Notes: a model not told the origin generated them from the letters alone. DNA of 57,801 nucleotides from an uncultured Elusimicrobiales bacterium (GCA_964520045.1 CAZFMJ010000004.1:5131-62931); one strand, 5' to 3'. Positions 1,371 to 55,945 are shown, counted from the stretch's first letter. Program-made: numbers and translations.

Positions 1371-1463
1371 GGTAGACGTCAGACGGTAAACGGTAGACGG
1401 TACAAACAAAACCGCTTTGTTAACATGCTTCTTCCCTCTCCGGTTTACCTTCCGCCGTCTGCC
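1371..1463. repeat. Inverted heptamer tandem-repeat pair, GGTAGAC family
   Basis: ggtagac gtcagac ggtaaac ggtagac ggtacaa (1371-1405) and complementary gtttacc ttccgcc gtctgcc (1443-1463), which overlaps the stop codon of the 1445 gene. Confidence 0.8.
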
Positions 1464-2389
1464 CTCTTATCGCTTTCCTCCACGAGACGGATAAAGACGT
1501 CCTCAAGAGACGGTTTTATGCGTCTGGCTGTAATGCCCTTCGGAATCTCCTGTTCCAGTTTCCGCCATACTTCTTCATCCTTAAGACTGAGATGAAAACG
1601 CAGGCCGTGGGGCTGGACGGAAATAACGCCCTCCCCGCGGATGAGCGCCTCCGGAACTTTGGTTCCGGCGGCGGCCGGGTTAAGTTCAATAAGCGGTCCG
1701 GCAAATGTTTTTTCCTTAAGCGCATGCGGAGAATCCAAAGCTATAAGCCTGCCGGCGGACATAAGCGCTATGCGTCCGCAATTTTCCGCTTCGTCCATGT
1801 AATGCGTTGTGACAAGAACGGTTTTGCCCGACTTGGTAAGCCTGCGTATCAAATTCCAAAATCTTTCTCTTGCGGCGGGAGCCACGCCGGAAGTCGGCTC
1901 GTCTAAAAACACTATTTCCGGGTCATGTAGTATGGCCGCGGCCAAAGCCAGTTCCTGCTTAAGCCCTCCGGGAAGACTGCGCACCATAGCATCGAGCCTA
2001 TGGTCAAAACCTATGAAATCCAGCAGTTCTTTGATGCGGACCGCGGCTGTTTTCGGCTCAAGCTTGCGCAGACCGGCGGTAAAAGCAAGATTTTCCTCCA
2101 CCGTAAGATCATCATAAAGGGTGAATTTCTGCGACATGTATCCAACCCTGCTTTTTATGGCTTTCCCTCCGTCCGCGAAATCCAGCCCGGCGACCTTCAC
2201 GCTTCCGGCCGTAGGCAGAAGAAGCCCGCACAAAGTGCGTATGGCTGTCGTCTTACCCGCTCCGTTCGCTCCCAGAAAACCGAATATCTCTCCGCTGTCT
2301 ACGGTAAAAGACAGCCTGTCCACGGCGGTAAATCCGCCGAAACGTATTGTGAGCTCATTGACTTCTATGGCGTAAGACTTGTTAATCAT
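1445..2389 (-). CDS. ABC transporter ATP-binding protein (YbhF-like)
   Basis: Walker A GANGAGKT, Walker B VFLDEPTSG, H-loop TTHYMDEAE; signature reads LPGG. Confidence 0.92.
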   Translation of the reverse strand: MINKSYAIEVNELTIRFGGFTAVDRLSFTVDSGEIFGFLGANGAGKTTAIRTLCGLLLPTAGSVKVAGLDFADGGKAIKSRVGYMSQKFTLYDDLTVEENLAFTAGLRKLEPKTAAVRIKELLDFIGFDHRLDAMVRSLPGGLKQELALAAAILHDPEIVFLDEPTSGVAPAARERFWNLIRRLTKSGKTVLVTTHYMDEAENCGRIALMSAGRLIALDSPHALKEKTFAGPLIELNPAAAGTKVPEALIRGEGVISVQPHGLRFHLSLKDEEVWRKLEQEIPKGITARRIKPSLEDVFIRLVEESDKRADGGR

Positions 2390-2402
2390 AGTTATCGCCG
2401 AT

Positions 2403-2552
2403 GCTAGACGGCTGGACCGCTTGACGGCTAGACAGCCAGACAGAAAAAAGTCACCATGTCACCAGTTTTAACAGCACAAGAAACTCTGAATCTTATTCTT
2501 ATACATTCTCCCCTCTATCAGCCCTCAGCCTTCAGTCTTCAGCCTTCAGCCT
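2403..2552. repeat. Cluster of octamer (GCTAGACG x5, GTCACCA(T/G) x2) and heptamer (TCAGCCT x5) tandem repeats
   Basis: gctagacg gctggacc gcttgacg gctagaca gccagaca (2403-2442); gtcaccat gtcaccag (2450-2465); tcagccc tcagcct tcagtct tcagcct tcagcct (2518-2552). Confidence 0.85.
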
Positions 2553-3272
2553 GCTTTTCTTACTGCGTCTTATAAACAGCTCTTCAAAACTTTCAGCGCC
2601 TTCCTGTTTAAGTATTTCTTTGGGTTCGCCAGAAGCCAGCGCCAGCCCCGATTCCAATAAATGCACTTTGGAACAGCGCTCCGCTTCGTCCATATATGCG
2701 GTGGAAATAACAACCAGAATTTTCTGCCCGGCAAGGCGGTATAAAAGCTCCCATAATTCCCTGCGGCTTATAGGATCCACTCCGTTGGTAGGCTCATCCA
2801 GAAGGATTGCCTTCGGAGACTGCAGAAGCGCGCACATAAGGCCGAGTTTTTTATACATGCCTCCGGACAACTGCCCCGCTCTGCGGTCCCTGAATTTATC
2901 CAGACGCGTAATTCTCAGCAGTTCTTCCGCTTTGGCGCGGTAAATATCAGCGGGAAGCTGATACAAACCGCGAAAAAAATCCAGATGCTCGCTGCAGGAA
3001 AGATCGGGATACAGGCTCTGCCGCTGAGGCATATATGCCATGGCGGGCCGGGCCAGCGCAAAAGTCAAAGCCCGCCCGTCTTCGCTGTAGGTTATGTCCC
3101 CCTCATCAGGATGAAGAAGCCCCATAAGAGAGCGCAAAAGAGTGGTTTTACCGGCCCCATCAGGTCCTATGACTCCATGCAGAAGGCCCGCGGAAAAATC
3201 CAAAGACACGCCCGCCAGAGCCTGATTTTGGCCCAGCTTTTTCCGCAAGCCCCGTGTCTTTATGCCTATCAT
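2532..3272 (-). CDS. ABC transporter ATP-binding protein (YbhF-like)
   Basis: GPDGAGKTT, LSGGM, LLDEPTNGVDP, STAYMDEAE. Confidence 0.92.
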   Translation of the reverse strand: MIGIKTRGLRKKLGQNQALAGVSLDFSAGLLHGVIGPDGAGKTTLLRSLMGLLHPDEGDITYSEDGRALTFALARPAMAYMPQRQSLYPDLSCSEHLDFFRGLYQLPADIYRAKAEELLRITRLDKFRDRRAGQLSGGMYKKLGLMCALLQSPKAILLDEPTNGVDPISRRELWELLYRLAGQKILVVISTAYMDEAERCSKVHLLESGLALASGEPKEILKQEGAESFEELFIRRSKKSRLKAED

Positions 3273-3293
3273 ATATATGCCCCAGAAAAAAGC

Positions 3294-3324
3294 GGCCAGT
3301 CACCAGCGGCCCAGCCGCCCGGCA
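3294..3324. repeat. Degenerate octamer repeat arm (GCCCAGCC, reverse complement of the GCTAGACG family)
   Basis: ggccagtc accagcg gcccagcc gcccggca. Confidence 0.5.
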
Positions 3325-3387
3325 ATCCCATGCCTGACCCTTTCAATGCTAAGGAAGTTATCCGCTGGAAAATCGGAAGACCCCTAA

Positions 3388-4110
3388 TTACTCCGGCAGA
3401 CGCGCTTCTATCGTCATGCCCGGCTTAAGAATCCGTTCGTCATTGGGAAATGTTATTTTCACTCCGTAGACCAAACGCGTGCGCTCCTCCCGTGTTTGAA
3501 CATTTTTGGGAGTGAACTCCGCCTCATCGTTAATATGGCTTATTCTCCCCTTGAATATCCGGCCTTTCATTTCAGGAATAATGCCGTCGACGGGCATGTT
3601 TAGAGATAATTTTGCGAGCAATGTCTGCGGGACATATACCAGCGCCCACACCTCGCTTAAATCGGCAAGCGTGAGAAGTTTCATTCCCGGAGAAACCAGT
3701 TCATTAGCCTCATGATAAGTAGAAAGCACGGTGGCGTTAATGGGAGACTTAATGACGCACCAATCAAGCTTTAGCGCGGCCTCATCGCGCTTGTTTTTAA
3801 GCCGGTCATAAGTCTCCTGGCTCATGGAGCTGTCGCGCAGCTGCTGCGCCCTCTTGAAATCCCTGTCGGCTATATCGGCCGAAAGCTTTATATCTTCGCA
3901 GGACAGCTTCACCAATGACTCCCCTGCCGATACATTTGCGCCCTCTTTGGCGTCAAAGGACGCGATTACCGAACCAAGCCTCGGCGATATATCAACTTCA
4001 ACCGCCTCAATGGTTCCGGCATAAAGGAAATCCCGTTGTTTCAGCAGCTTAAAAGCCAGAACCAGCGCTATAATTACCGCCGCCGCAATTATGATTTTTT
4101 TCCGTTTCAT
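3388..4110 (-). CDS. HlyD-family membrane fusion / periplasmic adaptor protein (YbhG-like)
   Basis: N-terminal TM anchor, lipoyl half-motifs, AEFTPKNVQTREER motif typical of YbhG. Confidence 0.9.
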   Translation of the reverse strand: MKRKKIIIAAAVIIALVLAFKLLKQRDFLYAGTIEAVEVDISPRLGSVIASFDAKEGANVSAGESLVKLSCEDIKLSADIADRDFKRAQQLRDSSMSQETYDRLKNKRDEAALKLDWCVIKSPINATVLSTYHEANELVSPGMKLLTLADLSEVWALVYVPQTLLAKLSLNMPVDGIIPEMKGRIFKGRISHINDEAEFTPKNVQTREERTRLVYGVKITFPNDERILKPGMTIEARLPE

Positions 4111-5463
4111 TTAATTCTCCTTTGAAAGACTTGAAAGCACGGCAAGCTGTATGAGAATCTGGACGTCCGTTTTTGCGGACTGAACCTTGGCTTCCAGTTC
4201 CCGCAGATTGGCGGACTGGACTTCAATAAAAGTCGACCTTCCGGCCTTGTAAGATTCATAGACAAGCCCTGCTAATTCTTCCGCTTCGGCCGACGCCCGC
4301 CTGTTTATTTCCCTCTGCGTTTTCAGGCTTAACAGCTGGTCTCCGGCTTTAAGCCGATCCCTTTTTAAATCCCTCAGAACAGCTTCCCTGCGGCTGTCAG
4401 CCGACATCGCATGGCTGTTCAAATCCCGCGCCTCGCTCGCGGTGCGGCCTGATTCAAAAAGAGGAAAGCTTGCGGAAATGCCGGCCATGTTCTGATGGAA
4501 TGATTCCAACACCGGACCGTTCGGGTAATCCAGACTGCTTCGGCCGCTTAAAATAACTTTGGGCCAACGCCCCGCGCTTATGCTTTGAGCCGTAATGCGC
4601 GCTGATTGCGCCATTGAACTTAAAGCCGAAAGCGCCGGATGATTTTCATCTATTTTGGAAAGCTCAGCCCGCGCCAGACCGCGCATGGAATCCTCCAGCG
4701 GATCAAGGGAAATCAGAGCCGAAGGCGGTTCTGTTTCATCGGGCAAAGAATCCGCCGTATCCGAACTCAGCGGATTGGACAAATCAGCGGAAGGCTCGTC
4801 TCCGGTCAACGCAAAAAGCTCCCGCAGAGAACCGGCGAGCTCCGCCCGCGATTGGCGGAACTGGCTCATGCGCCGGAGCGCTTCCTGATGAGCGGCAAGG
4901 CTGTCCATGCGGCTGGACGCCCCGGCCTGCCTGCGTTTTTCTATGTCTTTGTACTGAGACTGCGCCAGTTTAAGCGAATCGCCCAGCAAACGAACCTGCT
5001 CCAAAGCCAGCTGGGCCTGAAAATATGCCAGCCGCGTTTTTAAGCGGATATTTTTTAGCGCGGCTTTATATTCCCATGATTTTGCGGCGGCTGCGGCATC
5101 CGCCGCCTGCCATGCTCCGCGCAGAGCTCCTTTGTCCCAAAGGGTCCATGTCAGGGAAGGTCCCAACGAATAATTATTATTGTCTCCCAGAGTCATGTTT
5201 CTGCCTCCGGCCAAAGACAGGGCGGGAACTTCACTTAAATATTTCCAGCCTGCGTCAAAAGTCAGTTTGGGAAAAAGACCGCCCAGCCTGCCCTCCCGCC
5301 GGCTGGATGCCGACTCCGCATCAAAACCCGCGGCCTGAAGAAGCGGAGAGTTTTTTTCGGCATCTCCCTCGGCGGACCGCAGTTTTATGCGCAGAACGGG
5401 AATTTCAGCTGAAACGGTATAATTACAGGCTACAAACAGGAATAGACCCAGTATAAGTTTCAT
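4111..5463 (-). CDS. TolC-family outer membrane efflux protein
   Basis: Signal peptide, two OEP repeats (FPKLTF...LWDKG; WPKVIL...FPLFESG; YKAGRSTFIEV), operon context. Confidence 0.88.
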   Translation of the reverse strand: MKLILGLFLFVACNYTVSAEIPVLRIKLRSAEGDAEKNSPLLQAAGFDAESASSRREGRLGGLFPKLTFDAGWKYLSEVPALSLAGGRNMTLGDNNNYSLGPSLTWTLWDKGALRGAWQAADAAAAAKSWEYKAALKNIRLKTRLAYFQAQLALEQVRLLGDSLKLAQSQYKDIEKRRQAGASSRMDSLAAHQEALRRMSQFRQSRAELAGSLRELFALTGDEPSADLSNPLSSDTADSLPDETEPPSALISLDPLEDSMRGLARAELSKIDENHPALSALSSMAQSARITAQSISAGRWPKVILSGRSSLDYPNGPVLESFHQNMAGISASFPLFESGRTASEARDLNSHAMSADSRREAVLRDLKRDRLKAGDQLLSLKTQREINRRASAEAEELAGLVYESYKAGRSTFIEVQSANLRELEAKVQSAKTDVQILIQLAVLSSLSKEN

Positions 5464-6098: not shown

Positions 6099-6321
6099 AA
6101 TTTTCCCCTGCGCCTTGAAATAAATTTAGCCACAATAAAGCACAAAAGGCATCCAAACAATCCTCAAAGGCAGTGAGTTTGGATAGTCCCATTCTCAAAG
6201 TATTCAAGGAAAGAATGGGGCACAAAAAATGATGCTACTGTTTATGTGTTTTATATGCTTTTTGCAACTAACCATAGGATTTAAATTCCCGAGCCTTAAG
6301 TTATTACTATACGCTAGTATA

Positions 6322-6350: not shown

Positions 6351-6365
6351 GGCCTGCTCAAACAT

Positions 6366-6450
6366 GGGAAACGGTAAATGGTAGATGGCAAAACAACAAA
6401 AAGGCAATTCAGTTGCCAGCCGCTATCTGCTTTCTACTATCTACTATCCT
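6366..6450. repeat. Inverted heptamer tandem-repeat pair (GGTAGAT / CTATCTA)
   Basis: gggaaac ggtaaat ggtagat ggcaaaa ... ctatctg ctttcta ctatcta ctatcct. Confidence 0.75.
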
Positions 6451-10150: not shown

Positions 10151-11137
10151 ATGACCAGATTGCTTTCAAAAACCGACGTGGCGAATGTTCTTGACATGAA
10201 GGACACCATAGATATTTTAGAAAAAGCCTTCCGGGATATCGCGGAAGGCAGGGCTAATATGCCTCAGCGCACGGTTATACCCTCTCCGGAACATAGCGGC
10301 GCAGCTTTGTTTATGCCGGCATACCTCAAGGGTATGTCCGCCCTTGGCGCAAAAATCGTAACCGTATATAAAAACAATCCCTCAAAACACAATCTGCCTA
10401 CGGTCATGGGAACCATAATTCTGCTTGATGAAAATACCGGCGCGCCGCTGTCTCTTATGGATGCGGGGTATCTGACTGCCATGCGCACCGGAGGCATAGC
10501 CGGCCTTGCCTCCAAACTGCTTGCGCGTAAAGATGCGCGCGTGCATGCGATGTTTGGAACCGGCGGAATGGCGCGGGCAAACGCATGGGCGGTTGACTCT
10601 GTCAGAAATATCCAAAAACTCATTTTATATTCAAAAGATACGGCGGAACAGCGGGAGGCGTTCCGCGCATCCCTGATGGATATTATAAACTGCGAAATAG
10701 TCATTGCCGACGATCCGGCCAAAGCGGCTGCGCAAGCGGATATAGTAACGCTGATTACAAGCTCCAAAGATCCCATAGTCAGCGGCGATTGGTTTAAACC
10801 CGGCACTCACATCAATGCCATAGGTTCGCACGCGCCGGCAATGCGCGAACTGGACACCGCAACGGTTATAAAATCAAAAGTAATCTGCGACTCTCTTGAG
10901 GCATGCAAAGCCGAGGCAGGGGACTTTATAATTCCCGCGGAAAAAGGCGAATGGACATGGGACAAAGTCCATGGCTGTATCGGAGATGTTATCACCGGCA
11001 AAATTCAAGGGCGTGTTGATGATAATGAAATTACGCTTTTTAAGAGCGTCGGGCTGGCGATTCAGGATATTTCAACCGCCATGCACGTATACAAAAAAGC
11101 TCTGAAAGTGAACGCAGGCACAGATTTCACCTTCTAA
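10151..11137 (+). CDS. Ornithine cyclodeaminase / mu-crystallin family protein (archaeal-type alanine dehydrogenase-like)
   Basis: GGAGG RBS; LFMPAY, GAKIVTV, LTAMRTG, GTGGMA, HINAIGS, TLFKSVGLAIQD. Confidence 0.9.
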   Translation: MTRLLSKTDVANVLDMKDTIDILEKAFRDIAEGRANMPQRTVIPSPEHSGAALFMPAYLKGMSALGAKIVTVYKNNPSKHNLPTVMGTIILLDENTGAPLSLMDAGYLTAMRTGGIAGLASKLLARKDARVHAMFGTGGMARANAWAVDSVRNIQKLILYSKDTAEQREAFRASLMDIINCEIVIADDPAKAAAQADIVTLITSSKDPIVSGDWFKPGTHINAIGSHAPAMRELDTATVIKSKVICDSLEACKAEAGDFIIPAEKGEWTWDKVHGCIGDVITGKIQGRVDDNEITLFKSVGLAIQDISTAMHVYKKALKVNAGTDFTF

Positions 11138-11195
11138 ACCCAGGCCGGACAGTTCCATAATTTTTCGTATACCTTACTGCAATATTGCTCAAACC

Positions 11196-12221
11196 ATGCT
11201 CATAAAAACCAATCATGAACACATTGAGTTTTTTCTGCGCCGGTTCATCCGGCTGATATCCGTAATATGCGCGGTTGTTTATATTATGCATGGGGTTAAG
11301 GCATCCGGCGCGCAGACAAAGCGGGATTATGATTTTTCAATCAGCCATGACGAACTCACCCGCACTTACAAAGTTCATACCCCGCCTTCTTATGACGGTA
11401 AAACTCCGGCGCCGGCGGTATTGAATTTTCACGGAGGAGGAGGAAACGCCGATTCGGCGCGCCTAAGCAGCGGCATGAATGATTTCGCGGACAAGAAAGG
11501 ATTTATCGTTGTTTATCCGGAAGCGGTGATGCAGGGATATTACAAAAAAAGATTGCGCAAACAGTATTGGAACGCTGGAAACAGAGCTGATACCTCAAAA
11601 AATTCGTCCGCGGACGACGTGGGTTTCGTTTCCGCAATGCTTGATAAGCTGGAAAAGGATTTTAAAATTGATTCAAAGCGGATATATGCCGCTGGTTTGT
11701 CGTGCGGAGGACTGATGAGCTACCGCCTTGCATGCCAGCTTTCAGACCGGATAGCGGCTATAGCCCCCATAGAAGCCGACCAGCTTGACATAGAATGCGC
11801 TCCTCCGCGCGCAATGTCTATAATCCATTTTCACGGCTTAAAAGACAAATTACTGCCATATGCCGGCGGACGCGGCAAGGCCGCAGATACTATGGAAGAC
11901 TGGAAACCAGTGCCTAAACTTATCGCGGAATGGGTTAAACGAAACACCTGCGCGCCTGAACCTAAAACCACCTTTAAGCACGGCTCCGCAGTCTGCAATA
12001 CTTATTCAAACTGCAAGGACGGAAGCGAAATAACGCTCTGCGCAATAGAAGATCACGGGCACACGTGGCCGGACGGAACTTATAACGACGCTCCGTCCTG
12101 CGTAGACAATCCCGAAGGATGGGGATGCAGAATATGGAAGAGACTGCTCGGCCCCATAAACCGCAATATATCAGCCAACGAAGAGATGTGGAAATTTTTC
12201 CTGCGGCATCCCAAAAATTAA
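11196..12221 (+). CDS. Exported alpha/beta hydrolase, PHB depolymerase/LpqC-like esterase
   Basis: LNFHGGGG, WNAG, DDVGFV, nucleophile GLSCGG, FHGLKD, GHTWP, MWKFF; exact start uncertain. Confidence 0.85.
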   Translation: MLIKTNHEHIEFFLRRFIRLISVICAVVYIMHGVKASGAQTKRDYDFSISHDELTRTYKVHTPPSYDGKTPAPAVLNFHGGGGNADSARLSSGMNDFADKKGFIVVYPEAVMQGYYKKRLRKQYWNAGNRADTSKNSSADDVGFVSAMLDKLEKDFKIDSKRIYAAGLSCGGLMSYRLACQLSDRIAAIAPIEADQLDIECAPPRAMSIIHFHGLKDKLLPYAGGRGKAADTMEDWKPVPKLIAEWVKRNTCAPEPKTTFKHGSAVCNTYSNCKDGSEITLCAIEDHGHTWPDGTYNDAPSCVDNPEGWGCRIWKRLLGPINRNISANEEMWKFFLRHPKN

Positions 12222-12333: not shown

Positions 12334-12417
12334 GGTTGGGTGGCAGAGCGGTCAAATGCACCGGTCTGTAAAACCGGCGGGCTACGCCCTACGAAGGTTC
12401 AAATCCTTCCCCAACCA
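12334..12417 (+). tRNA. tRNA-Tyr (GTA)
   Basis: Acceptor GGTTGGG/CCCAACC plus discriminator A; anticodon arm CCGGT-CTGTAAA-ACCGG; long variable arm; T arm GAAGG-TTCAAAT-CCTTC; CCA not encoded; TGgTAAAAT extended -10 at 12301-12309. Confidence 0.97.
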
Positions 12418-12431
12418 TTTTTTATAGCAGC

Positions 12432-12463
12432 AACAAAAAACCGCCCGGCGCGGTTTTTTTGTT
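12432..12463 (+). terminator. Intrinsic terminator after tRNA-Tyr, probably bidirectional
   Basis: AACAAAAAA-CCGC-ccggc-GCGG-TTTTTTTGTT. Confidence 0.75.
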
Positions 12464-12803
12464 TTTATGAGTATTTATTTTATAGTTAATTCTGATTTTT
12501 ATTTTTTGTGAGGATATTTTCCACGCCTAAATTCATTTCAGCGCGCAGTTTGGCTTTTATTATCTCGCGCACAATTTCATGAGCCCAGCGGTTCCTGAAT
12601 ATCTTTTCCGGATCATCGCATTTTATTTTCACGGAAATTGCAATGGGCATATTTTTTATCCTTGCTTAACCGTAAAAATCCGCCAATCCTCCGGTTGGCG
12701 CCTGAATTGTTCCGGTTAAAGCGCGTATGCCCATTGATAACATAAATCTGCAACCAAAAAGTGTCAAGGATGTTAAGAATTTATAAAGACTACGGGGTTT
12801 TGA

Positions 12804-13100
12804 ACTGGACCGCCGGGCGGCTATGAGGAGGGTAGACGGGAGATGGAAGACGGAAGACGGGAAAAAACAAAAAAATAACCACAATCAACTTCCTACTTTC
12901 TATTTTCTCGCTTGCGCGGGACTGCGGGACAGCTGGGTAGCTTGGAAACTGGGGGTATGGGCGACAGGAACACTGTAAAACTGGTGACATGGTGACTTGG
13001 AAGCTGATGACTTTTTTCTGTCTGGCGGTCCAGCTGCCCAGCCGTCCAGTTGGTGTTTTCTTTTCTGTCTGGTGACTGGCGCCTGGTGACTTGGCGACTT
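12804..13100. repeat. Composite array of several 7/8-nt tandem-repeat arms downstream of pyrE
   Basis: ggtagac gggagat ggaagac ggaagac (12831-12858); gcgggact gcgggaca gctgggta gcttggaa; ggtgacat ggtgactt; gtctggcg gtccagct gcccagcc gtccagtt (13020-13051); ggtgactt ggcgactt. Confidence 0.8.
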
Positions 13101-13104
13101 CCCC

Positions 13105-13680
13105 CTACTTCCCCGGAGGTCTGCTGCCGGGTTTGGTTATTGGAATTCCGCCTGCGCACATGGGGCAGGACTGAGCCTGATATGCCACAAGCTTGATGGA
13201 GGCAAGGCTTTTTATTTCAAAACCAAGATCAGAAGAACCGCGGTTTATTATTGAAAGACCGGCCAGAACTTCGCCGCCGCAGGAACGGATTATCCCGGCC
13301 GTTTCAAGAGTGGATTTTCCCGTAGTCATCACATCTTCGACTATAATCACTTTCATTCCCGGGCCGAGAACAAATCCCCTGCGCAGGGACATATGTCCGT
13401 CAAGCCGCTCGCAGAACATAAATTTGACGCCCAAAGCCTTGGCTGTTTCATGGCCTATTATCATGCCGCCCAACGCGGGAGAAAGAACCGCGTCAGGTCT
13501 CGGCCCCGTCCATAAACCGGCAAGCTCTTTGCCTATTTCCTGCGCTTTAACCGGACAATGCAGGGCAAGCGCGCACTGAACATAATCCGCGCTGTGCAGC
13601 CCCGAAGAAAGCTCAAAATGGCCTTTTAAGAACGCTCCGCTGGAACGCAGATATTCAATAATGGATTCGGAATCAGCCAT
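13105..13680 (-). CDS. pyrE: Orotate phosphoribosyltransferase
   Basis: GHFELSSGLHS, PALGG, PRPP motif IIVEDVMTTGKS, C-terminal KPGSR. Confidence 0.95.
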   Translation of the reverse strand: MADSESIIEYLRSSGAFLKGHFELSSGLHSADYVQCALALHCPVKAQEIGKELAGLWTGPRPDAVLSPALGGMIIGHETAKALGVKFMFCERLDGHMSLRRGFVLGPGMKVIIVEDVMTTGKSTLETAGIIRSCGGEVLAGLSIINRGSSDLGFEIKSLASIKLVAYQAQSCPMCAGGIPITKPGSRPPGK

Positions 13681-14392: not shown

Positions 14393-14422
14393 ATTCAGAC
14401 TCCTTTCTTCCCCGTTTTCCCA

Positions 14423-14479
14423 CTATATGCTATCTGCTGTCTACTATATACTGTCTCCTGATATACTATCTACTATCCG
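14423..14479. repeat. Heptamer tandem repeat (CTATCTA family, 8 units) supplying the pyrD stop codon
   Basis: ctatatg ctatctg ctgtcta ctatata ctgtctc ctgatata ctatcta ctatccg. Confidence 0.85.
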
Positions 14480-15486: not shown

Positions 15487-16765
15487 CTTTCATCACAAAT
15501 TTTCCGGCGACTATGCAGCAGCAGGACCTGCCGGTAAGCTTCATGCCGGTAAACGGGGAATTTTTTGATTTAGATAAAAATTTGCCGGCGGTGAACCGTT
15601 CCAGCGGATTTATTATTGTAATATCCGCGTCCATCCCGGGCTTAAGACCGCCCTTTGATTTAAGGCGCAGTATCTTCGCGGGATTTACGCTTAACAGACG
15701 CGCCATGCCGGAAGCGGAAATTATTTTTCCATGCACAAGTTTAGTCATAACAAGAGGCAGAAGCGTCTCCAAACCTATTATGCCGAAAGGCGCTTTCAGC
15801 ATTCCCTTTGCCTTGAGCCGGGCATGATGCGGAGCATGATCCGACGCCACGGCGTCTATTGTGCCGTCGGCAAGCCCGCGCAGTATAGCTATGACATCCC
15901 TTTTTGTGCGCAGGGGAGGATTCATCTTAAAATCCGCGTCCCGCCCTGAAATATCCTCCTCCGTAAGGCAAAAATAATGGGGGCAGGTCTCGGCCGTAAT
16001 ATTTATGCCGGCTTTTTTTGCGGTTCTGATATATTCCACGGTTTCCGCGCAGCTTACATGAGCGATATGAAGCCTTGAACCCGGCACGGCTGCCGCAAGC
16101 GCGATATTTTTTGCCGAAGATAAAATTTCGGACTGCCGCGCAATGCCGGGCAGTTTTTTTAGTTTTGAAATTTTACCTTTGTTTATCACGCCTCCCGCGG
16201 AAAGGCTTAAGTCTTCGCAATGCTCGATAAGAGGTATTCCAAGCGCGGCGGATGCCTCAAGGGCTTTTAAAAATATCCGCTGGTCGGACACCGGAGAGCC
16301 GTCGTCCGTGAATGCGCAGGCTCCGGCTTTCGCCATAGCCTCCATATCCGCAATTATTACTCCGCTTCTTCCCTTTGTCACACAGCCGGAAAACAGCGCG
16401 TTCACAACCGACTCCGACCGGGCGATGTTTTTCATGCGGAGTATCATTGCGGGCGAATCGGCGGGAGGATCGGTGTTAGGCATTGCGCACAACGTGCATA
16501 CTCCGCCTGCCGCGGCGGCTCTTGAACCTGTTTTAACGGTTTCGCTGTTTTCCGCTCCGGGCTGGCGCAGATGGACATGCATGTCGATAACGCCGGGCAT
16601 TACCCATTTGCCGGCGGCGTCGCAAACATGACAGCCGGCGGATGGAGTCTTAAGATTTTTTGCGCAGGCAAGTATCCTGCCGTCCTTTACAAGAACATCG
16701 GATACAGCCTCAATTTCCCGGGACGGATCTATGACAAGCCCGTTTTTTATAAGCAGGTATTTCAT
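15470..16765 (-). CDS. pyrC: Dihydroorotase (type I)
   Basis: DMHVHLRQPG, MPNT, FTDDG, HCED, HIAHVS, KMNPPLR, ASDHAPH, PFGIIGLET; start moved to ATG 16765 (MKYLLIKNG), 16771 is an alternative. Confidence 0.93.
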   Translation of the reverse strand: MKYLLIKNGLVIDPSREIEAVSDVLVKDGRILACAKNLKTPSAGCHVCDAAGKWVMPGVIDMHVHLRQPGAENSETVKTGSRAAAAGGVCTLCAMPNTDPPADSPAMILRMKNIARSESVVNALFSGCVTKGRSGVIIADMEAMAKAGACAFTDDGSPVSDQRIFLKALEASAALGIPLIEHCEDLSLSAGGVINKGKISKLKKLPGIARQSEILSSAKNIALAAAVPGSRLHIAHVSCAETVEYIRTAKKAGINITAETCPHYFCLTEEDISGRDADFKMNPPLRTKRDVIAILRGLADGTIDAVASDHAPHHARLKAKGMLKAPFGIIGLETLLPLVMTKLVHGKIISASGMARLLSVNPAKILRLKSKGGLKPGMDADITIINPLERFTAGKFLSKSKNSPFTGMKLTGRSCCCIVAGKFVMKDGVIL

Positions 16766-16866: not shown

Positions 16867-16936
16867 GATGCATAAAAAAATTCAGCTTTTTGATACGATA
16901 AACATGTTTCAACTGCAACTTTCAGGTTAATATAAA

Positions 16937-18007
16937 TCAATAGTCAAGAATTTTATTTTCCACCCTGAATATCACCGAGATAAGCGCCGCCCTGCTCCAC
17001 ATCCCGTTTCTTTCCTGCCTCCAGTACATGGCGCGGTCGTCTTTATCGACTTCCGTTTCTATTTCATGCCGCCTGGGCAGGGGATGCATTATTATGCAGT
17101 TCTTCTTGATTATCTTAAGATGCTCCGCCTTGAAATAAAACTTTGAATAATCCACTTTTTTGGAGTCTCCGGACACCGCATCGTGTTCATCCTGAATGCG
17201 GGTCATATATACGGCGTCCGCCTCCGGCAGGACAGCCTCAAAATCCTGCGTCTCGCGGTATGAAATATTATGCCTGTCCAGGAATTCTATGATATCCCTT
17301 TCTATGCTGAATTCTTCGGGCGCGGCATACAGTAATTTTACGTCTTTATAATTCTTCATCAGGTAAGACAGAGACCGCACCGTCCTGCCGCGTTTTAAAT
17401 CCCCAGCCATGACTATTGTTTTTCCGTCTATGCCGTCTTTGAACGACTTGTCCAGCGTATACATGTCCAACAGGGCCTGCGTAGGGTGCTGGTCCTTGCC
17501 CGAGCCTCCGTTTATGATAGGCACGGGCCGCTTTGCCGTATTCATGTACCATGCGGTCTTTTCAACAAACCCCGCCGCCGGATGCCGCATTATTATGAGG
17601 TCCACATAGCTGGAAAAGGTGCGCACGGTGTCCTCGGGAGACTCCCCCTTTATCTCCGAAGAAGTGCTTGTGTCTCTTATTTCGGAAGTCTTAAGCCCGA
17701 GTATGTGGCAGGCGTTCAAAAAAGACAGGAACGTCCTGGTGGACGGCTGGACAAAATACAGCATGGCGCGCTTATGCGAAAGCAGGGAAGAGGCATAATC
17801 GCTTCCTTTCTTGGTTTTTGTCATTAGACGCAGTTTATTGGCTATCTTAAAAATCCTCTCCAGCAGAGGCCTGTCGAACTGCTGGGAAAAAAGACAGTCG
17901 TAAATGCATCCTTCTTTTGCAAAAAACTGAAGTTTTTTTGAAATCTCCAGTTTATAGAACTCATCCCAGTTTTTAGGTATGCCTGTCATCTGCAAAGTTC
18001 TTTCCAT
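16937..18007 (-). CDS. pyrB: Aspartate carbamoyltransferase catalytic subunit
   Basis: QPSTRT, KGES, MRH, QHPTQALLD, GDLKRGRTVRSL, TRIQ, MHPLPR; ATG 18007 preceded by GAGGAGGAG. Confidence 0.95.
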   Translation of the reverse strand: MERTLQMTGIPKNWDEFYKLEISKKLQFFAKEGCIYDCLFSQQFDRPLLERIFKIANKLRLMTKTKKGSDYASSLLSHKRAMLYFVQPSTRTFLSFLNACHILGLKTSEIRDTSTSSEIKGESPEDTVRTFSSYVDLIIMRHPAAGFVEKTAWYMNTAKRPVPIINGGSGKDQHPTQALLDMYTLDKSFKDGIDGKTIVMAGDLKRGRTVRSLSYLMKNYKDVKLLYAAPEEFSIERDIIEFLDRHNISYRETQDFEAVLPEADAVYMTRIQDEHDAVSGDSKKVDYSKFYFKAEHLKIIKKNCIIMHPLPRRHEIETEVDKDDRAMYWRQERNGMWSRAALISVIFRVENKILDY

Positions 18008-18050
18008 TTTTCTCCTCCTCTTTAATATTTCCGCGTTGTCAAACATTGAC

Positions 18051-18146
18051 CACGGAGACACTGGAACTGAAATACACGGAGACACCGAAAACAATTAATC
18101 CCAAACTTCCCGTTCCGTGTCTCTTAACCTCCGTGTTTCCGTGTTT
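18051..18146. repeat. Inverted octamer tandem-repeat pair (CACGGAGA / CCGTGTTT)
   Basis: cacggaga cactggaa ctgaaata cacggaga caccgaaa ... ccgtgtct cttaacct ccgtgttt ccgtgttt; right arm lies inside the MFS C-terminus. Confidence 0.8.
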
Positions 18147-19659: not shown

Positions 19660-23596
<3,937 letters not shown>

Positions 23597-25157: not shown

Positions 25158-25167
25158 TTTTAAAAAA

Positions 25168-25306
25168 GGTAAATGGGAGAATATAGAAGGTAGATGGAAA
25201 GGAAAAGACAAAAAACAAATCCTTTTTTTATTTAGTTTAAAACTTGCTTCTTTTAAGGATTGCTTTGGCAGCCCAGCCGTCTAGCTGCCTCGCTGTCCAG
25301 CTGTCT
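25168..25306. repeat. Two unpaired repeat arms (GGTAGAT heptamers; GTCCAGCT octamers)
   Basis: ggtaaat gggagaa tatagaa ggtagat ggaaagg (25168-25202); gcccagcc gtctagct gcctcgct gtccagct gtct (25271-25306), abutting the kbl stop. Confidence 0.75.
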
Positions 25307-26509: not shown

Positions 26510-26531
26510 GTTACGCCTCCAGATAAAGAAA

Positions 26532-27839: not shown

Positions 27840-27904
27840 CAGAAGTTAGAATTCAGAAGTCAGAAGCCTCTGTTCATTCTGAATTCCTACTCCTGAATCC
27901 CGTC
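27840..27904. repeat. Inverted heptamer tandem-repeat pair (CAGAAGT / TTCTGAA)
   Basis: cagaagt tagaatt cagaagt cagaagc ... ttctgaa ttcctac tcctgaa tcccgtc. Confidence 0.75.
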
Positions 27905-30094: not shown

Positions 30095-30253
30095 CGCAAA
30101 GCGCGCAAAGGGTTTACGCTAAGAACGCAAAGATTACACAAACCCTTAACTTTCCATCCATCCCCATGCCAATGACTCCGCTGGAGAATTCTTTTTCCAT
30201 CATCTCCCTCAGATTCGCTCCGTATCCTTCGCGTTTGCTTTGCGTTCTTTGCG
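30095..30253. repeat. Inverted CGCAAAG / CTTTGCG repeat pair (about 9-nt period) between convergent genes
   Basis: CGCAAAG at 30095, 30104, 30126 (CGCTAAG at 30117); CTTTGCG at 30238, 30247 (CTTCGCG at 30227); perfect 12-bp IR AAGAACGCAAAG/CTTTGCGTTCTT. Confidence 0.8.
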
Positions 30254-30271
30254 TTTAGTCTTCGAGTTTTT

Positions 30272-30765: not shown

Positions 30766-30775
30766 ACAATTAAGG

Positions 30776-32104: not shown

Positions 32105-32122
32105 TTAGTCCTCCACTTGTGG

Positions 32123-33117: not shown

Positions 33118-33128
33118 AAAACAAAGAA

Positions 33129-33230
33129 GGTAGATGGTAAACGGTAGACGGTAAACGAAAGAATGAAGAAAATAAATGGAAGAAAATTTATATCTGTTTT
33201 TGTTTTACCATCTACCGTCTACCGTCTACC
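33129..33230. repeat. Inverted heptamer tandem-repeat pair, GGTAGAC family
   Basis: ggtagat ggtaaac ggtagac ggtaaac ... ttttacc atctacc gtctacc gtctacc. Confidence 0.9.
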
Positions 33231-33231
33231 C

Positions 33232-33269
33232 CAATATGACCCCGCCACACAAGTGGTGGGGTCATATTG
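33232..33269. terminator. 17-bp stem-loop directly after the PorV-like gene (terminator or mRNA-stabilising hairpin)
   Basis: CAATATGACCCCGCCAC-acaa-GTGGTGGGGTCATATTG with one non-Watson-Crick pair; no clear U-tract on the minus strand. Confidence 0.55.
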
Positions 33270-33274
33270 AGTTG

Positions 33275-34228: not shown

Positions 34229-34241
34229 AATTCCCCTTTAC

Positions 34242-34320
34242 GGTAGATAGTAAACGGTAGAAGGCAGACGGAAAAACAAACTGTTTTTTTCTCCGTCTAC
34301 CGTCTCCCATCTACCGTCTT
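34242..34320. repeat. Inverted heptamer tandem-repeat pair, GGTAGAC family
   Basis: ggtagat agtaaac ggtagaa ggcagac ggaaaaa ... ccgtcta ccgtctc ccatcta ccgtctt. Confidence 0.9.
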
Positions 34321-34323
34321 AAT

Positions 34324-37300: not shown

Positions 37301-40300
37301 GAGATATTCCCGCTGACATCAACCCCGTCAAAAAGCGTGAAGTTGACGGCGCCGGTGGAAACGGCCGTTCCGTTTACCATCACGTTACCGGAAAGATAAT
37401 CCGACCTTCTGACGGTTACGATTTTTTCCTGCTTGGGCACGGATACCGCGCATGTCGCGCACAGCTGGAGAGGAAGCGTGCGCAGGGTATATACGCCTTC
37501 CTGCAGGCCTGATACGGTATAAGAGCCTGCCGCGGTGATATATCCTACCCTGGTGCGCATCGGATCATACGTGTCCGACAAAACTATGCCTGTCTGGGTC
37601 ATTTCCCTGCGCACGGCTTCAATCGGTATAACCGTTCCCACGGCATAAGCGGGGTATCCGGCTGCCAGAGTAAAGCTTGAATTCTGAACTATTTTCTGGC
37701 TGGTATTAAAATCCGGATTGCTTATCTGCGTAGCGACGACAGCTCCGGAAACTGCATACGTCTCGTCCCTCAGGTCTACAACGACATTGGTGACCGCGCC
37801 GTTTACCACCTTAAGCTGATAAGTTTTGGAACGGCCTGTCGCCTTGAACGTGAAGATGATCTCCATCGTCTGAGTCTCGAGCCCTTCCACTCTAAAAACA
37901 GCCCGCGAACCATTTATCACAAGTCCGGGAAGTCCTTCGCCTCCGGACGTGCCGGTTATGTCGGCCATATAGATTCCGCTATCCGTCGTCGCGTACGGGT
38001 TGTCTGAATTCAAAATGCGGCCGGTCATGGAAACCTGCTGGAAATCAGCCGCGGTCGTAGGCGCGCCGTTTACTGTTTCCGGCAGATAGATGGTTCCGTT
38101 TATCACGCCCGAAGCCAGCTCAAAAGAGAAATCTCCGGCATTATTTGTGACAGGCACGGGCACAATTTTCGGGAATCCGCCCGGCGTTGAAAATTCGCCG
38201 GGTCCGTTTGATCTTCTGTCCAGATTCGCGAACAATTGATAACTGGAATTGCTCTCCAGACCCGTTATTGTATAAGCGGAACTGGCTATTTGTTCGCTCC
38301 CCGAAACCGTTCCGGTAGACAGATACACTTCAGCCCAGCCGTTACTGAAAGTCGCCGGCGACCAGACATTTATCCATACCTTAAAGGCGCAGCCGTTATG
38401 CTGGCCGTCTATGCACTCAGGCTTGGTATCAAGCAGTTCGAAATTAGACATGGCGGACGCGCTTCCTTTTATCGACACTGTGCCGGTTATCTGCCCGCCC
38501 GTATTAAATTCCGGCAGATCAACTACGCGGTCGGTATATGCGACCACCACGGGAAAGGTGCTCGATACTCCCGAGAAACCCGGGACCTGTCCTCTTATAA
38601 CGTAGGTTCCAGGATCGACTCCGAACAGGTTATACGTGCCTGAGCTTAAATTCGGCTCAAGCCATATTCCGCCCCATGCGCCCTGATTGGAAGACGACAT
38701 GTCCTGCGGCATGGCATTGACCGATATCCACGTGCCGTTGGCATTAAGAGCGCCTGCCGGCAGTTTTACAAGCCCTGAGACATTGGCTTTTCTTGAGAAA
38801 GGAGACAGGTTTACCACAGCTCCGATACTGCCTACGTATGCCGTAGCGCTTACATTTCCGTAGCCGTATAACTGTGCATCCACGGTATATGTTCCGGCTT
38901 CCACGTCAAATCTTATGCGGCTGCGGTACACAATTTGACCCGTTGACGCGTCCCAACTTCCTCCATCGTCGAAATTAGTGGTTCCGCCTATAAGCCGAAG
39001 TCCTCCGTTATATACGCGGTCCCAATTGTCGGTGTGAACATTTATCCAGCCCCATTGGTCGGCCGTATTAGAATTCACTCCCGAAAACGACGGTATGAGT
39101 ATAAGGGCGGGGGCTCCCCTCATTGAAGCATTGCGCGTGGCGCCCGCCGCGTTGACAATAACATTCGTCGAAATACTCGCGTATTCCGGCTTTGTGAACT
39201 GGAAGTTATAAGTTCCGGCGGCAAGCCCCGGTATGGAATAATTTCCGTTGGAATCCGTTACAGTCTGACCCCAGCCGGACGGACCGCTCGCATTTATATT
39301 TACTCCGGCAAGCGGCCTTGAAGGAACAACTCCCGCGTCAAGAACCCGTCCGGAAACCTGCGGAACAGTTACATCTATGCGCAGATCCGTGTTTGAAAGG
39401 CTCCCTACCTCTATTTTCACATAATAGACGCCTGAAGGAACTACCGAACCATAATTAATCCACGGACTGTAGTGTCCGTCCCAGACTACCTGGCCGAGAT
39501 ACGGCTGTCCCCAGCCCCATGATTCCCATATAGCCGTCGTAGTTACGCCCTCGCGGAAAGTTCTTGAAGAAATAATCACATGCCAGCCTATACTCGGATC
39601 GCTGAGCGCAAAGTTTATATACGCGCGGGCATTATCCACAGGATTGATCGTTATCTGCGTTAAGGCGGAATTATAAGTTCCGGTTGAGATATTAGCTCCC
39701 GTAATAGCCTGGCCGGCCATAACCTGCACGCCCATATAGGACGTATTCGCATATCCTAGATTATAGGACAAAGCGATATTATGGAATCCCGCGGTAAGAG
39801 GCCTGACATGGAATGTGGCCGAAGACACTCCGGCGGGAATAGTTATCCCCGTCTGTCCAGCGGCAAGAGCGGCCAAACCAACGTTGCGGGAGAACTGCAT
39901 ATTGGGATCAGCGGCAAACGCTCCTGTCGCGTAGTCATAACTCTGTCCGCTTACGGTGGCTACCGTCACTCCGGCAAAAGGCGCCGGGTTCCAGCACATG
40001 TCCCGTCCCTCCACCACCATAGTTGAGATTGAGTTTGCTGGCAGAGTGATGTTATAGGAATTTTCGCTTCCTGCCATGCGCATTGAAATATTTGCCGCTG
40101 TTCCGGCCACAAGCGCGGATGACGGCTCGCCGTTTACTAAAGGCGCCGGCGTTGAACCGGATTTGGACGTGCCCACATGGAATACCGCAGTTCCGGTTTC
40201 GCACGGAGAATTCAACCCCTTAAGCATTATATAAACGGACGCGCCTTCAGACAGAGACTGGCCCGCCGCAAGACGAATTTCGGCGCCTGAACCGAATGAA

Positions 40301-54615: not shown

Positions 54616-54649
54616 ATATATTCACCTTTTTTTAACGAAGATGATCAAC

Positions 54650-54705
54650 TGCTCACCATCACTTTCTGCTCATCACTTAAAACTTACCGCCAACTTACGA
54701 CTTCT
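54650..54705. repeat. Heptamer repeat arm (CTTAC family) right after the beta-barrel stop
   Basis: cacttaa aacttac cgc caacttac gacttct; AACTTACCGC is the exact reverse complement of GCGGTAAGTT at 55882-55891. Confidence 0.65.
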
Positions 54706-54706
54706 T

Positions 54707-55945
54707 TTAAAATTCGTAAGAAAATCCGAGCAAATACGTTGTCACGTCAAAATTATATCTGTAAAGCTTTTCATACGACATATTCGATACCTGCTTCCCG
54801 TACTGAAAGGAAACCAGCCCCTTAAAACCCGGAGCAAGCGGATATGACGCCGAAGCCGAAAGAAGCCACTCATTCATATAAATGCTGTCTGTTCCGTAAA
54901 GGCCCGCCGAATCCTGAATCGGCCTTTTGGAATATTTCGTCCTTCCCACACCGGCGCCCGCCCTGATCTCTGTAAATTTTTTATCGTCATTTGCTAAAGG
55001 GATCTGCACCGCCATATCGACTCCGAACCTGTACTTGTTATAATTGTAGTAATCCGCCAGATAGGTCGTTCTCTGCGCGTCATAGCTGTTCTGGTTGGAG
55101 CGGTTTGCCAACAGAGTAAAACCGACCCCAGGAATAAGCTTCACGCCTTTGGCTGTTTTGTTCGGCACTTTCCAACTTAAATCAAACATTCCCATGGTAT
55201 CGTTTCTTGTGCCTGTTTCAAACTGGCCGGCGGTGTTAATCACATGCTGTTCATCATACGCCCTTGCGGTTAAATTGCCGGATACCGCAAGAACCGACCC
55301 CCCGGCATTTCCGGTTACGGAAAAAGTGACCCCATGGTTTACCGAATTAAGCACCTCAGAACCTGCCATTTCTCTGGCAAGACTGCCCGCCGACTGGCCC
55401 GCTATCTGGGATTCCAAAGAGGTGTAATTAAGAAAATTGATCAAATAAAAATCATATCCCAAGCGCACTGAAAACGGATCATTATAAAGGTATTCGCATT
55501 CAAGCGAAAAAGCGGGTTTATGATAGTCAAAAAGCCCTTTGCCCCATTTTTCATCTTTTGTTTCCTTTAAAAGATCCCATTTAAACTCCGCTTCCGGCTT
55601 TATCCTTAATTTCGGAGAAATCGAATATATTCCCCGCACGGCCACCTTATGGTCCATCCTTTCCTGGAAAAGCGTACCGCCTCCCACCAAATCAGTAACC
55701 TGTTTTGTGCCCTGATATCTTCCGCTATATAAAGGAATAAGGGTTAACTCTCTGGACATTTTGACGGAAGCCGAAGCAAGGGCGCTTGCATTCCCGGAAA
55801 GCGCTCCCTCCTGCCCCGAAAAGAAATACTGCCCGCCCAAAAACGAGGCGTTGAAATAAGGAGTGACTTCGTAAGCCGTAAGCGGTAAGTTGTAAGCGGT
55901 AAGTAAAAAAACAACCAAAGAAAATAAGCGTGTGTAAAATCTCAT
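54707..55945 (-). CDS. Putative outer membrane beta-barrel protein
   Basis: AGGAGG RBS, signal peptide, Tyr/Phe/Gly-rich alternating strands, C-terminal LGFSYEF (BAM-type aromatic end). Confidence 0.75.
   Translation of the reverse strand: MRFYTRLFSLVVFLLTAYNLPLTAYEVTPYFNASFLGGQYFFSGQEGALSGNASALASASVKMSRELTLIPLYSGRYQGTKQVTDLVGGGTLFQERMDHKVAVRGIYSISPKLRIKPEAEFKWDLLKETKDEKWGKGLFDYHKPAFSLECEYLYNDPFSVRLGYDFYLINFLNYTSLESQIAGQSAGSLAREMAGSEVLNSVNHGVTFSVTGNAGGSVLAVSGNLTARAYDEQHVINTAGQFETGTRNDTMGMFDLSWKVPNKTAKGVKLIPGVGFTLLANRSNQNSYDAQRTTYLADYYNYNKYRFGVDMAVQIPLANDDKKFTEIRAGAGVGRTKYSKRPIQDSAGLYGTDSIYMNEWLLSASASYPLAPGFKGLVSFQYGKQVSNMSYEKLYRYNFDVTTYLLGFSYEF
55871..55905. repeat. Heptamer tandem repeat (GTAAGCG x5) inside a signal-peptide coding region
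   Basis: gtaagcc gtaagcg gtaagtt gtaagcg gtaagta, encoding ...LLTAYNLPLTAY... Confidence 0.85.

Follow-up and report, generated by a model that had tools for sequence, protein, structure and literature searches.

Paired tandem-repeat arms between protein genes of an uncultured Elusimicrobiales bacterium as candidate gene-less relatives of IVS-like hairpin cassettes

The stretch of DNA analyzed here (the window) comprises 57,801 nucleotides from an uncultured Elusimicrobiales bacterium (GCA_964520045.1 CAZFMJ010000004.1:5131-62931, or C4:5131-62931 in our numbering of the 144 contigs of this 2.96 Mb metagenome bin, labeled G000). Its genes are ordinary housekeeping ones, including those for ATP-binding cassette (ABC) transporters, the pyr operon, ligA, purH, glnA and others, and in the gaps between them lie arrays of degenerate short tandem repeats, at many sites paired as inverted arms around a spacer. 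All copies in the window lie between protein genes, and none holds an open reading frame (ORF) in its loop. As discussed below, we consider it an even call that these repeats are gene-less members of a group of hairpin cassettes, with at least two classes of cargo gene, that resemble the intervening sequences (IVSs) of 23S rRNA.

Repeat arrays in the window

Tandem Repeats Finder places short-period arrays in 13 of the window's intergenic gaps (at positions 1383, 2403, 2518, 6364, 6423, 12834, 12982-13096, 14422, 18130, 25273, 27840, 30238, 33129, 33206, 34293 and 55870), with arrays in every gap where the first-pass annotation of this DNA had described them. That annotation had also proposed a comparison with shuffled sequence, and for period 7 this comes out in favor of enrichment at both scales: 15 arrays of period 7 or 14 are found in the window, compared to a mean of 1.37 (standard deviation 1.02, maximum 5) in 30 dinucleotide-preserving shuffles of it, and 585 rows of period 7 in the genome, compared to 75-80 in three shuffles. 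For the other periods, the window values are 7 for periods 8 and 16 (mean 1.87, and weak since the shuffle maximum is also 7), 5 for periods 9 and 18 (mean 1.30, maximum 4) and 1 for period 10 (mean 1.93, maximum 5), and the genome-wide values are 265 rows for period 14 (shuffles 16), 278 for period 8 (72-98), 330 for period 9 (83-93) and 136 for period 10 (116-124).

Each of the seven sites that had been quoted as inverted arms folds into one long hairpin (-21.7 to -42.8 kcal/mol on the + strand, with z scores of -2.8 to -8.8 relative to mononucleotide shuffles), so that the description as inverted arms is borne out there; three further sites listed with them, however, are single arms without a partner, and a fourth has only a weak one. 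The individual sites are as follows, where GGNARAN is the dominant heptamer of the genome, as described in the next section.

1371..1463, between two ABC-transporter genes (- strand): paired GGNARAN hairpin, -29.7 (+) and -36.2 (-) kcal/mol, z -3.5; its right arm covers the final codons of ORF 1445-2389.
2403..2552: composite element of GCTAGACG-type 8-mers (2403-2441), two GTCACCA units (about 2449-2464), an A/T-rich spacer and five TCAGCCT units (2518-2552); the 8-mer and 7-mer arrays fold well on the - (sense) strand only, with -52.0 kcal/mol versus -31.4 on +.
6364..6450, divergent gap: paired hairpin of GGTAAAT/GGTAGAT followed by CTATCTA units, -25.6 kcal/mol, z -4.9.
12834..12910: purine-rich GGNARAN arm, A-run and weak pyrimidine-rich partner, -15.4 kcal/mol, z -3.1 on + only.
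12920..13100: several 8-mer arrays clustered downstream of tRNA-Tyr, within 680 nt of non-coding DNA, with TGGTGACA, GTCCAGCC and similar units and a fold no better than that of shuffles (z 0.1 and -0.5).
14422..14477, between pyrF and pyrD: lone pyrimidine-rich arm of ACTATCT units, no partner and no fold (z 0.1).
18051..18146, at the junction of a major facilitator superfamily (MFS) gene and pyrB: paired hairpin of CACGGAGA 8-mers, -29.4 kcal/mol, z -4.2.
25273..25305, adjoining a gene start: lone array of CCAGCTGT-type 8-mers, partnerless, weak fold.
27840..27904, divergent gap: paired hairpin of CAGAAGT/CAGAATT heptamers, -21.7 kcal/mol, z -5.5.
30095..30255, convergent gap: paired arms of CGCAAAG-type 9-mers, -37.8 and -48.5 kcal/mol.
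33129..33230: the best-formed GGNARAN hairpin, with four units, an A/T-rich spacer and four complementary units, -42.8 kcal/mol, z -8.8 on both strands.
34242..34320: GGNARAN hairpin that occupies the interval between the stop of a giant ORF (34324) and the start of a PorV-like gene (34228), -30.8 (+) and -38.1 (-, sense) kcal/mol.
55870..55905: lone purine-rich array of GTAAGCG heptamers, no partner arm and no significant fold.

Several of these unit types recur elsewhere. The CACGGAGA units at 18051..18146 are of a type found around GxxExxY genes in the phylum, the CGCAAAG family of 30095..30255 also encloses the only GxxExxY gene of this genome (G000:C7:4749-5225), and the CAGAAGT family of 27840..27904 recurs on contigs C16, C25 and C111.

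At two places in the window (16937-18146 and 1445-1463), arms extend into called ORFs: the pyrB ORF carries about 65 surplus N-terminal residues ahead of its first domain, and the MFS and ABC ATPase ORFs terminate within arms. The ORF calls are lengthened in this way because the pyrimidine-rich arms lack a stop codon in the three frames of the sense strand. The region 12334-13105 holds tRNA-Tyr, then a G+C-rich hairpin with a T-run, then the non-coding stretch of about 680 nt, in which several different arrays and a 55-aa ORF are found. The giant ORF at 34324-54615 (- strand) encodes 6763 aa and has its GGNARAN hairpin on the 3' side. A second dispersed repeat lies at 6150-6235 (G000:C4:11280-11365), a double hairpin of about 70-88 nt with the form CCAAAC...GTTTGG followed by CCCATTCT...AGAATGGG, for which blastn returns about 156 loci in the genome at 77-88% identity; at 21 of the 156 it lies within 30 nt of a period-7 array, and it often abuts or splits an arm.

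We also considered, and rejected, the possibility that the arrays are intrinsic terminators: among 20 terminator-like sites found between 24000 and 36000 in a scan limited to loops of 3-8 nt, none coincides with any of the five repeat sites of that interval, and beside one of these sites there is a separate classic terminator-like site (27982-27961).

Architecture of the paired arms across the genome

On a rough ORF-based gene map (2185 genes, 82% coding), 394 of 563 merged period-7 arrays are intergenic, despite the high coding fraction. A reverse-complement partner within 200 nt is found for 204 of 560 period-7 arrays, compared to 40 for direct, 15 for reversed and 63 for complement-only controls, leaving 356 without a detected partner; for periods 8 and 9, the corresponding numbers are only 15 of 253 and 12 of 280. 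Merging yields 163 pairs, of which 11 lie at contig edges and 152 could be classified.

The dominant unit has the profile G (.85), G (.88), N, A (.88), R, A (.91), N, or GGNARAN, such that four of its seven positions are conserved and three are free to vary. While all of the unit families that had been listed as eight unrelated ones are seen by direct reading, this one degenerate heptamer prevails, with its commonest canonical forms accounting for about 311 of 560 arrays among 111 distinct canonical heptamers in all. Three consecutive GGTAGAC units (with up to 2 mismatches) occur 200 times in the genome, versus 4 times for the same pattern read backwards, twice in the only genome of the same family, and not at all in the 39 genomes of the same order that were searched.

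The pairs are built to one plan: of the 152 classified, 135 begin with the purine-rich arm and 1 with the pyrimidine-rich arm, and 16 are ambiguous, in line with the earlier suggestion of an architecture shared across units; outside the GGNARAN family (29 pairs), the counts are 17, 1 and 11, respectively. Since an inverted repeat has the same layout on either strand, gene orientation does not enter into this purine-first rule. Relative to genes, arrays within 60 nt past a stop codon are purine-rich in the gene sense in 165 cases versus 8, and arrays ahead of starts are pyrimidine-rich in 80 versus 24. The first arm begins a median of 3 nt past the stop (86 of 162 within -10 to +15), and from the end of the second arm to the called start the median is 11 nt, a distance that depends on uncertain start calls, 41 of 142 of which run into the arm. 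By gap type, 120 pairs are co-directional, 21 convergent and 11 divergent; the genome has 735, 137 and 184 such gaps of at least 80 nt, respectively.

Spacers measure 11-236 nt (median 77), with A-rich and T-rich collars inside the arms, and are otherwise mostly unrelated: 72 of 152 resemble no other, and the remainder share mostly these A-run and T-run collars. We therefore rejected a single miniature inverted-repeat transposable element (MITE) as the source, there being no common internal sequence, in agreement with the first-pass annotation, which had argued against one MITE.

Cargo genes and arm type

Profile searches of this genome return seven matches to two families: six to PF05635 (four intact genes and two fragments), the four-helix-bundle family of IVS ORFs, and one to TIGR04256 (GxxExxY). 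Six of the seven, comprising all five intact genes and one of the two fragments, are the sole gene between a purine-rich and a complementary pyrimidine-rich arm, and each cargo gene is co-oriented with a neighboring gene. The enclosed genes are as follows.

C32:20228-20829: four-helix-bundle gene at 20342-20716, GGNARAN arms.
C56:12896-13425: four-helix-bundle gene at 12962-13345, GGNARAN arms.
C34, about 16915-17328: four-helix-bundle gene, AGGCTGA arms.
C67, about 10919-11200: four-helix-bundle pseudogene, AGGCTGA arms.
C32, about 16000-16470: four-helix-bundle gene, CCCAG-type 8-mer arms.
C7:4749-5225: GxxExxY gene at 4788-5180, CGCAAAG-type arms.

An association of such arms with four-helix-bundle and GxxExxY genes had been put forward for other genomes in the first-pass annotation, and it thus holds in this one. 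When the genes enclosed by arms were listed, as had been proposed there, flanking inverted repeats scoring at least 14 were found for only 40 of 1991 genes scanned. Most of the other "enclosed" genes (ankyrin, biotin-lipoyl, GmhB, patatin, SIS and DUF192) lie between two complete elements and not within one loop; the ankyrin gene is ambiguous, the order being purine-rich arm, gene, second purine-rich arm, loop and pyrimidine-rich arm.

Copies of the cargo at unrelated loci carry the same arm family. The cassettes at C32 and C56, both with GGNARAN arms, are 85% identical over 409 nt spanning the gene, and the DNA outside the arms does not align; those at C34 and C67, both with AGGCTGA arms, are 83% identical over 240 nt.

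The association extends to the phylum. Of 201 sampled Elusimicrobiota genomes, 66 have a PF05635 match and 26 a TIGR04256 match. We scored the best ungapped inverted match between the 260-nt flanks of such genes (threshold at least 11), with the same geometry shifted by 900 nt as control, using one best PF05635 locus per genome (29 of 30 usable) and 23 of 30 TIGR04256 loci, from which the one of G000 and six weak or partial matches had been excluded (22 of 23 usable). The threshold was reached at 25 of 29 PF05635 loci versus 4 of 55 shifted controls, and at 19 of 22 TIGR04256 loci versus 2 of 41, so that the suggested link holds here as well. Furthermore, the arm type follows the cargo type, as shown by the following counts, which are to be read with the caveat that the cargo-specific motifs were picked after viewing the arms and that genomes of one phylum are not independent samples.

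Arms of period 7: four-helix-bundle 16 of 25, GxxExxY 1 of 19.
Arms of period 9-11: four-helix-bundle 3 of 25, GxxExxY 15 of 19.
Arms with TAG: four-helix-bundle 17 of 25, GxxExxY 1 of 19.
Arms with C[AG]C[AG][AG]A: four-helix-bundle 0 of 25, GxxExxY 14 of 19.

Period-7 TAG units thus accompany the four-helix-bundle genes, and C-R-C-R-R-A units of period 9-11 the GxxExxY genes. Judged by their arm sequences, the window sites built of GGNARAN, GTAAGCG, GCTAGACG and TCAGCCT units would be assigned to the four-helix-bundle type, and those built of CACGGAGA and CGCAAAG units to the GxxExxY type.

Repeats flank genes at two further loci of this genome. At G000:C103:390-1370, inverted tandem units of a different, TTAAG-rich family border an MntA-like nucleotidyltransferase/HEPN pair (of toxin-antitoxin type), an arrangement that is ambiguous. 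At G000:C93:3200-3800, a 115-aa ORF without a family match has a palindromic repeat (two G+C-rich hairpins within AGGCTGA-type units) on either side.

Known systems and the origin of the elements

To our knowledge, intergenic tandem heptamers and the IVSs of 23S rRNA have both gone without explanation since they were first described around 1990. In this genome, we see them as one architecture, present in many copies and combined with two classes of cargo that differ in arm type, and joining these two long-unexplained features makes it testable whether the four-helix-bundle protein binds GGNARAN arrays, whether the GxxExxY nuclease cuts at its arms, and whether RNase III cuts operon mRNAs at the hairpins.

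For the filled cassettes, the ORF-bearing IVS, known from Coxiella and Leptospira, is the closest match. In Coxiella, the terminal inverted repeats pair into a stem whose loop holds an S23p four-helix-bundle ORF, and RNase III has been shown experimentally to excise the IVS; IVSs replace the tetraloops of helices 9, 25 or 45 of 23S rRNA, and have long been suspected of being mobile elements, the first report dating from 1990 (PMC4990558). Among the S23p-family proteins of Xanthomonas campestris ATCC 33913, one has had its structure solved (PMC4990558). Common to both systems are a long stem built from terminal inverted repeats and, in its loop, an ORF of the PF05635 family (here in four intact genes and one of two fragments elsewhere in the genome, and in none of the window copies), the existence of gene-less versions, which for IVSs are found in other bacteria, and their being regarded as selfish elements (PMC4990558). 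IVSs, however, lie within 23S rRNA (none of which is present in this assembly), whereas the elements here lie between, and once within, protein genes, and the near-perfect 28-bp stem described for Coxiella (PMC4990558) contrasts with degenerate tandem arrays with about 25% mismatch. A literature search, which left out subscription journals and database family descriptions, found no paper linking these cargo genes to tandem-repeat arms outside rRNA.

The repeat architecture itself has already been published for Xanthomonas (PMC4692102). There, Rehm et al. 2015 describe GGGAATC heptamers, with G-rich heptamers also in Nostoc, and 70-75 convergent "inverted repeat" pairs per genome; most of the repeats are transcribed, their function is given as not known, quadruplex formation or protein binding is proposed, and no association with mobile elements is reported (PMC4692102). 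In both cases, the repeats are genome-wide, enriched between co-directional ORFs and rare between divergent ones, with the G- or purine-rich strand coding just past the stop and non-coding just before the start (within 50 bp of either in Xanthomonas), and this common positional rule, together with the inverted pairs, supports the kinship with published bacterial heptamers that had been suggested earlier (PMC4692102). The present repeats thus fit the Xanthomonas description apart from the G-tracts: GGNARAN has G only at positions 1-2 and no tract of at least three, and CAGAAGT, CGCAAAG and GTAAGCG lack GG altogether, so that the quadruplex reading does not carry over and was rejected on unit composition. 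Several unit families and periods (7, 8 and 9-11) coexist here, unlike in Xanthomonas, and the arms enclose four-helix-bundle and GxxExxY genes, whereas no link to cargo is reported for Xanthomonas (PMC4692102).

Cyanobacterial short tandemly repeated repetitive (STRR) heptamers and the TAACTGA repeats of Beggiatoaceae are intergenic tandem heptamers too. They share with the present repeats their place at gene boundaries, a lineage-specific sequence and a patchy phylogenetic distribution. Of the TAACTGA sets, however, 169 are direct and only 1 is indirect, and their place is immediately ahead of starts (MacGregor 2015, PMC4679880), whereas the present repeats are typically set as inverted pairs and are anchored most strongly at stops. 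MITEs and the Rickettsia palindromic elements are likewise small, dispersed palindromes without coding capacity that can lie in frame within genes, as in mfd here; the present elements differ in having no conserved internal sequence and no parent element with a known transposase that shares the arms, the genes that do share them being four-helix-bundle or GxxExxY genes, and no target-site duplication was detected at their poorly defined ends.

Taking these likenesses into account, we return to the proposal that the window repeats are gene-less members of IVS-like hairpin cassettes, on which we are evenly divided. A cassette would consist of two convergent arrays of a short motif, with inner A-rich and T-rich collars and a variable loop, lodged between protein genes. 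Such elements would spread as selfish DNA, with the gene-less copies standing to the few filled ones as MITEs stand to their parent elements, and their arms would not be a tuned stem but would repeat a recognition motif, which the cargo protein may bind. Transcribed in operons, the elements would fold into long imperfect hairpins that RNase III, the gene for which is present in the genome, could cut, as with IVS stems, and they may be tolerated because the hairpin would keep the upstream stop and the downstream start close, and also because the first arm would supply stop codons in all three frames. Movement and a role as RNA are both inferred here. Mobility is suggested by the lineage-specific unit, by the shared arms around duplicated cargo at unrelated loci, and by the one pair of 152 that lies deep within a gene, where it is inserted in frame into Mfd and separates the UvrB-interaction domain from the CarD/TRCF-RID domain (G000:C7:3666-3895, within ORF 1119-4613 on the - strand); the translation of this insert is repetitive, of low complexity, and rich in Ser, Gly, Asp, Val and Thr.

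A broader proposal, which we put forward tentatively as possible rather than probable, is that a single undescribed class of mobile hairpin cassettes comprises STRR-type heptamers, 23S rRNA IVSs, and the four-helix-bundle and GxxExxY genes that occur in multiple copies. The arms would be binding arrays for the cargo protein (7-nt TAG units for an Avd-like bundle, Avd being a four-helix-bundle relative, and 9-11-nt C-R-C-R-R-A units for a PD-(D/E)XK-like nuclease), the few filled copies would mobilize or maintain the roughly 150 gene-less ones per genome, and the hairpin would make insertion between stop and start nearly harmless.

A number of observations weigh against the cassette proposal. 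Gene-less pairs number about 150 compared to 6 filled ones, and the short spacers, whose median of 77 nt leaves no room for a gene, together with the presence of only two PF05635 fragments, imply that the gene-less pairs are not recent decay products of filled ones. We know of no demonstrated role in mobility for either cargo family. Matches of at least 2 nt that could be target-site duplications are found at 7 of 151 pairs versus 13 of 151 with shuffled partners, with arm ends that are crudely defined. The nearest available genome shares only glnA with the window region. The DNA sequencing data consist of five contig runs from two studies. Run X1 and run X3 both have contigs that cross 34242..34320 and show no differences there, and one X3 contig crosses 27840..27904. 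The X1, X3 and X5 contigs over 24000-40000 are of low depth and stop inside arms, many of their joints being other arm copies; since run contigs break within the arms of this metagenome bin, some joins across repeats could be wrong. The post hoc choice of arm motifs and the lack of independence among the genomes, noted above, are to be counted here as well. Finally, cognate arms are no more complementary than non-cognate ones (0.767 vs 0.777, 124 GGNARAN pairs), the lengths of the two arms in the same pairs are uncorrelated (rho 0.02), and about 25% of arm positions are mismatched. The first two results argue against both selection on a particular stem and an origin by recent inverted duplication, and, taken with the mismatches and with the absence of a sense-strand excess of G.U pairs (207, vs 189 A.C pairs, p 0.39), indicate that the arms behave as two independent convergent arrays of one motif and not as a co-evolving stem.

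The main rival is that the elements are intercistronic RNA hairpins selected by the host, as processing sites for RNase III or other enzymes, 3' stabilizers or stop/start bridges for translational coupling, with small genes having settled in some loops and no mobile cassette involved. The concentration of pairs in co-directional gaps and their depletion from divergent ones (120 per 735 gaps vs 11 per 184), the tight anchoring to stops and starts, and the strong folding (median z -5.8 relative to shuffles, n = 60 elements genome-wide) are all in line with such a role, as is the rarity of Shine-Dalgarno-like motifs before genes that follow an arm (8 of 45 vs 703 of 2116). Moreover, 68 of 112 elements in co-directional gaps fold more stably on the sense strand and the other 44 on the antisense strand (mean difference 2.3 kcal/mol, Wilcoxon p 0.005), which gives some substance to the earlier idea of RNA hairpins that tune processing; that idea loses ground, however, to the lack of cognate complementarity and of compensatory co-evolution, and the sense-strand bias could also stem from transcription-linked C-to-T mutation. 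As none of the 39 genomes searched from the same order has the unit family, one element lies within the mfd coding sequence, and arm type tracks cargo type across genomes, we regard host selection as unlikely. The independence of the arms would sit well with arrays that act as DNA or bind a host protein, were made in place by slippage and do not move, with the inversion reflecting only the rule that the purine-rich strand is the coding one past a stop. Xanthomonas provides a precedent for the positional rule and the inverted pairs (PMC4692102), the conserved unit positions and the many single arms fit, and the arms look like independent samples of the unit; slippage, however, does not explain the enclosed cargo, the same arms around duplicated cargo or the in-frame mfd copy, and quadruplexes cannot be the common factor for units with two-G tracts or none, so that we consider this distinctly unlikely.

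Mobilization in trans offers another route. Repetitive extragenic palindromic (REP) elements lie between and after genes in operons, and with their relatives, the bacterial interspersed mosaic elements (BIMEs) and REPINs, they share with the present elements an abundance of imperfect palindromes in intercistronic and 3' positions, often in mosaics with other small repeats, as with the double-hairpin element here; RAYT-like genes (for REP-associated tyrosine transposases) flanked by inverted arms also exist in this genome. The elements could then be REP/REPIN-like hairpins moved on single-stranded DNA by RAYT-like Y1 transposases, with the cargo genes as passengers. There are six PF01797 (Y1-transposase) matches, the three ORFs tested match the NCBIfam family "REP-associated tyrosine transposase" best, and two of these three (C34:31-993 and C28:23587-24054, the latter of 155 aa; loci G000:C34:1-1070 and G000:C28:22980-24110) are themselves enclosed by inverted arms, each a G-rich box with two 8-mer units. 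The NCBIfam scores of 63-72 bits fall, however, below the cut-off of 80, no inverted arrays were seen at the other four matches, and the C34 arm sequence occurs at only 6 places in the genome and is unlike the abundant GGNARAN, AGGCTGA and CGCAAAG units; REP and REPIN elements, furthermore, are built on one conserved palindrome and not on tandem arrays of a 7-11-nt unit. We hold this route to be very unlikely, although the RAYT-like genes in arms may be a third cargo class or a helper acting in trans. Still less probable, and in our view highly improbable, are the empty attachment sites of an integron-like system with a site-specific recombinase. Cargo does sit precisely in loops and is of several classes, but arm type is specific to the cargo and not common to all, the sites are dispersed through operons and not arrayed beside a recombinase as integron cassettes with their attC sites are, and the best match to the integron integrase profile TIGR02249 scores 74.9 bits relative to a cut-off of 265, with sub-cut-off matches in all 14 control genomes too, on which basis we rejected it. 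The window sites could be, as suggested earlier, empty sites of a mobile gene-cassette system, but the observations fit gene-less copies (arms and A/T collars with no gene) at least equally well.

Whatever the origin of the elements, they have practical consequences, in that arms overlapping the ends of ORFs, and in one case crossing mfd, lead to spurious N- and C-terminal extensions in annotation, and that arms break metagenome assemblies. At the two enclosed Y1 loci, further tandem arrays lie outside the arms, and a DnaA-C-like part is fused to the Y1 ORF in C34 and forms a separate ORF in C28. Among 160 glnA neighborhoods, the best protein identity was 79%, and no synteny beyond glnA was seen in the five Elusimicrobiota loci compared; the closest GlnA relatives are consistent with a placement of this genome in Elusimicrobiota. 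As chance finds, gene-less heptamer hairpins with the purine-rich arm first lie beside glnA in unrelated phyla as well, at L119:4110-4190 (a Nitrospira bin) and L011:6655-6725 (a metagenome contig), the units of the latter resembling the published G-rich type.

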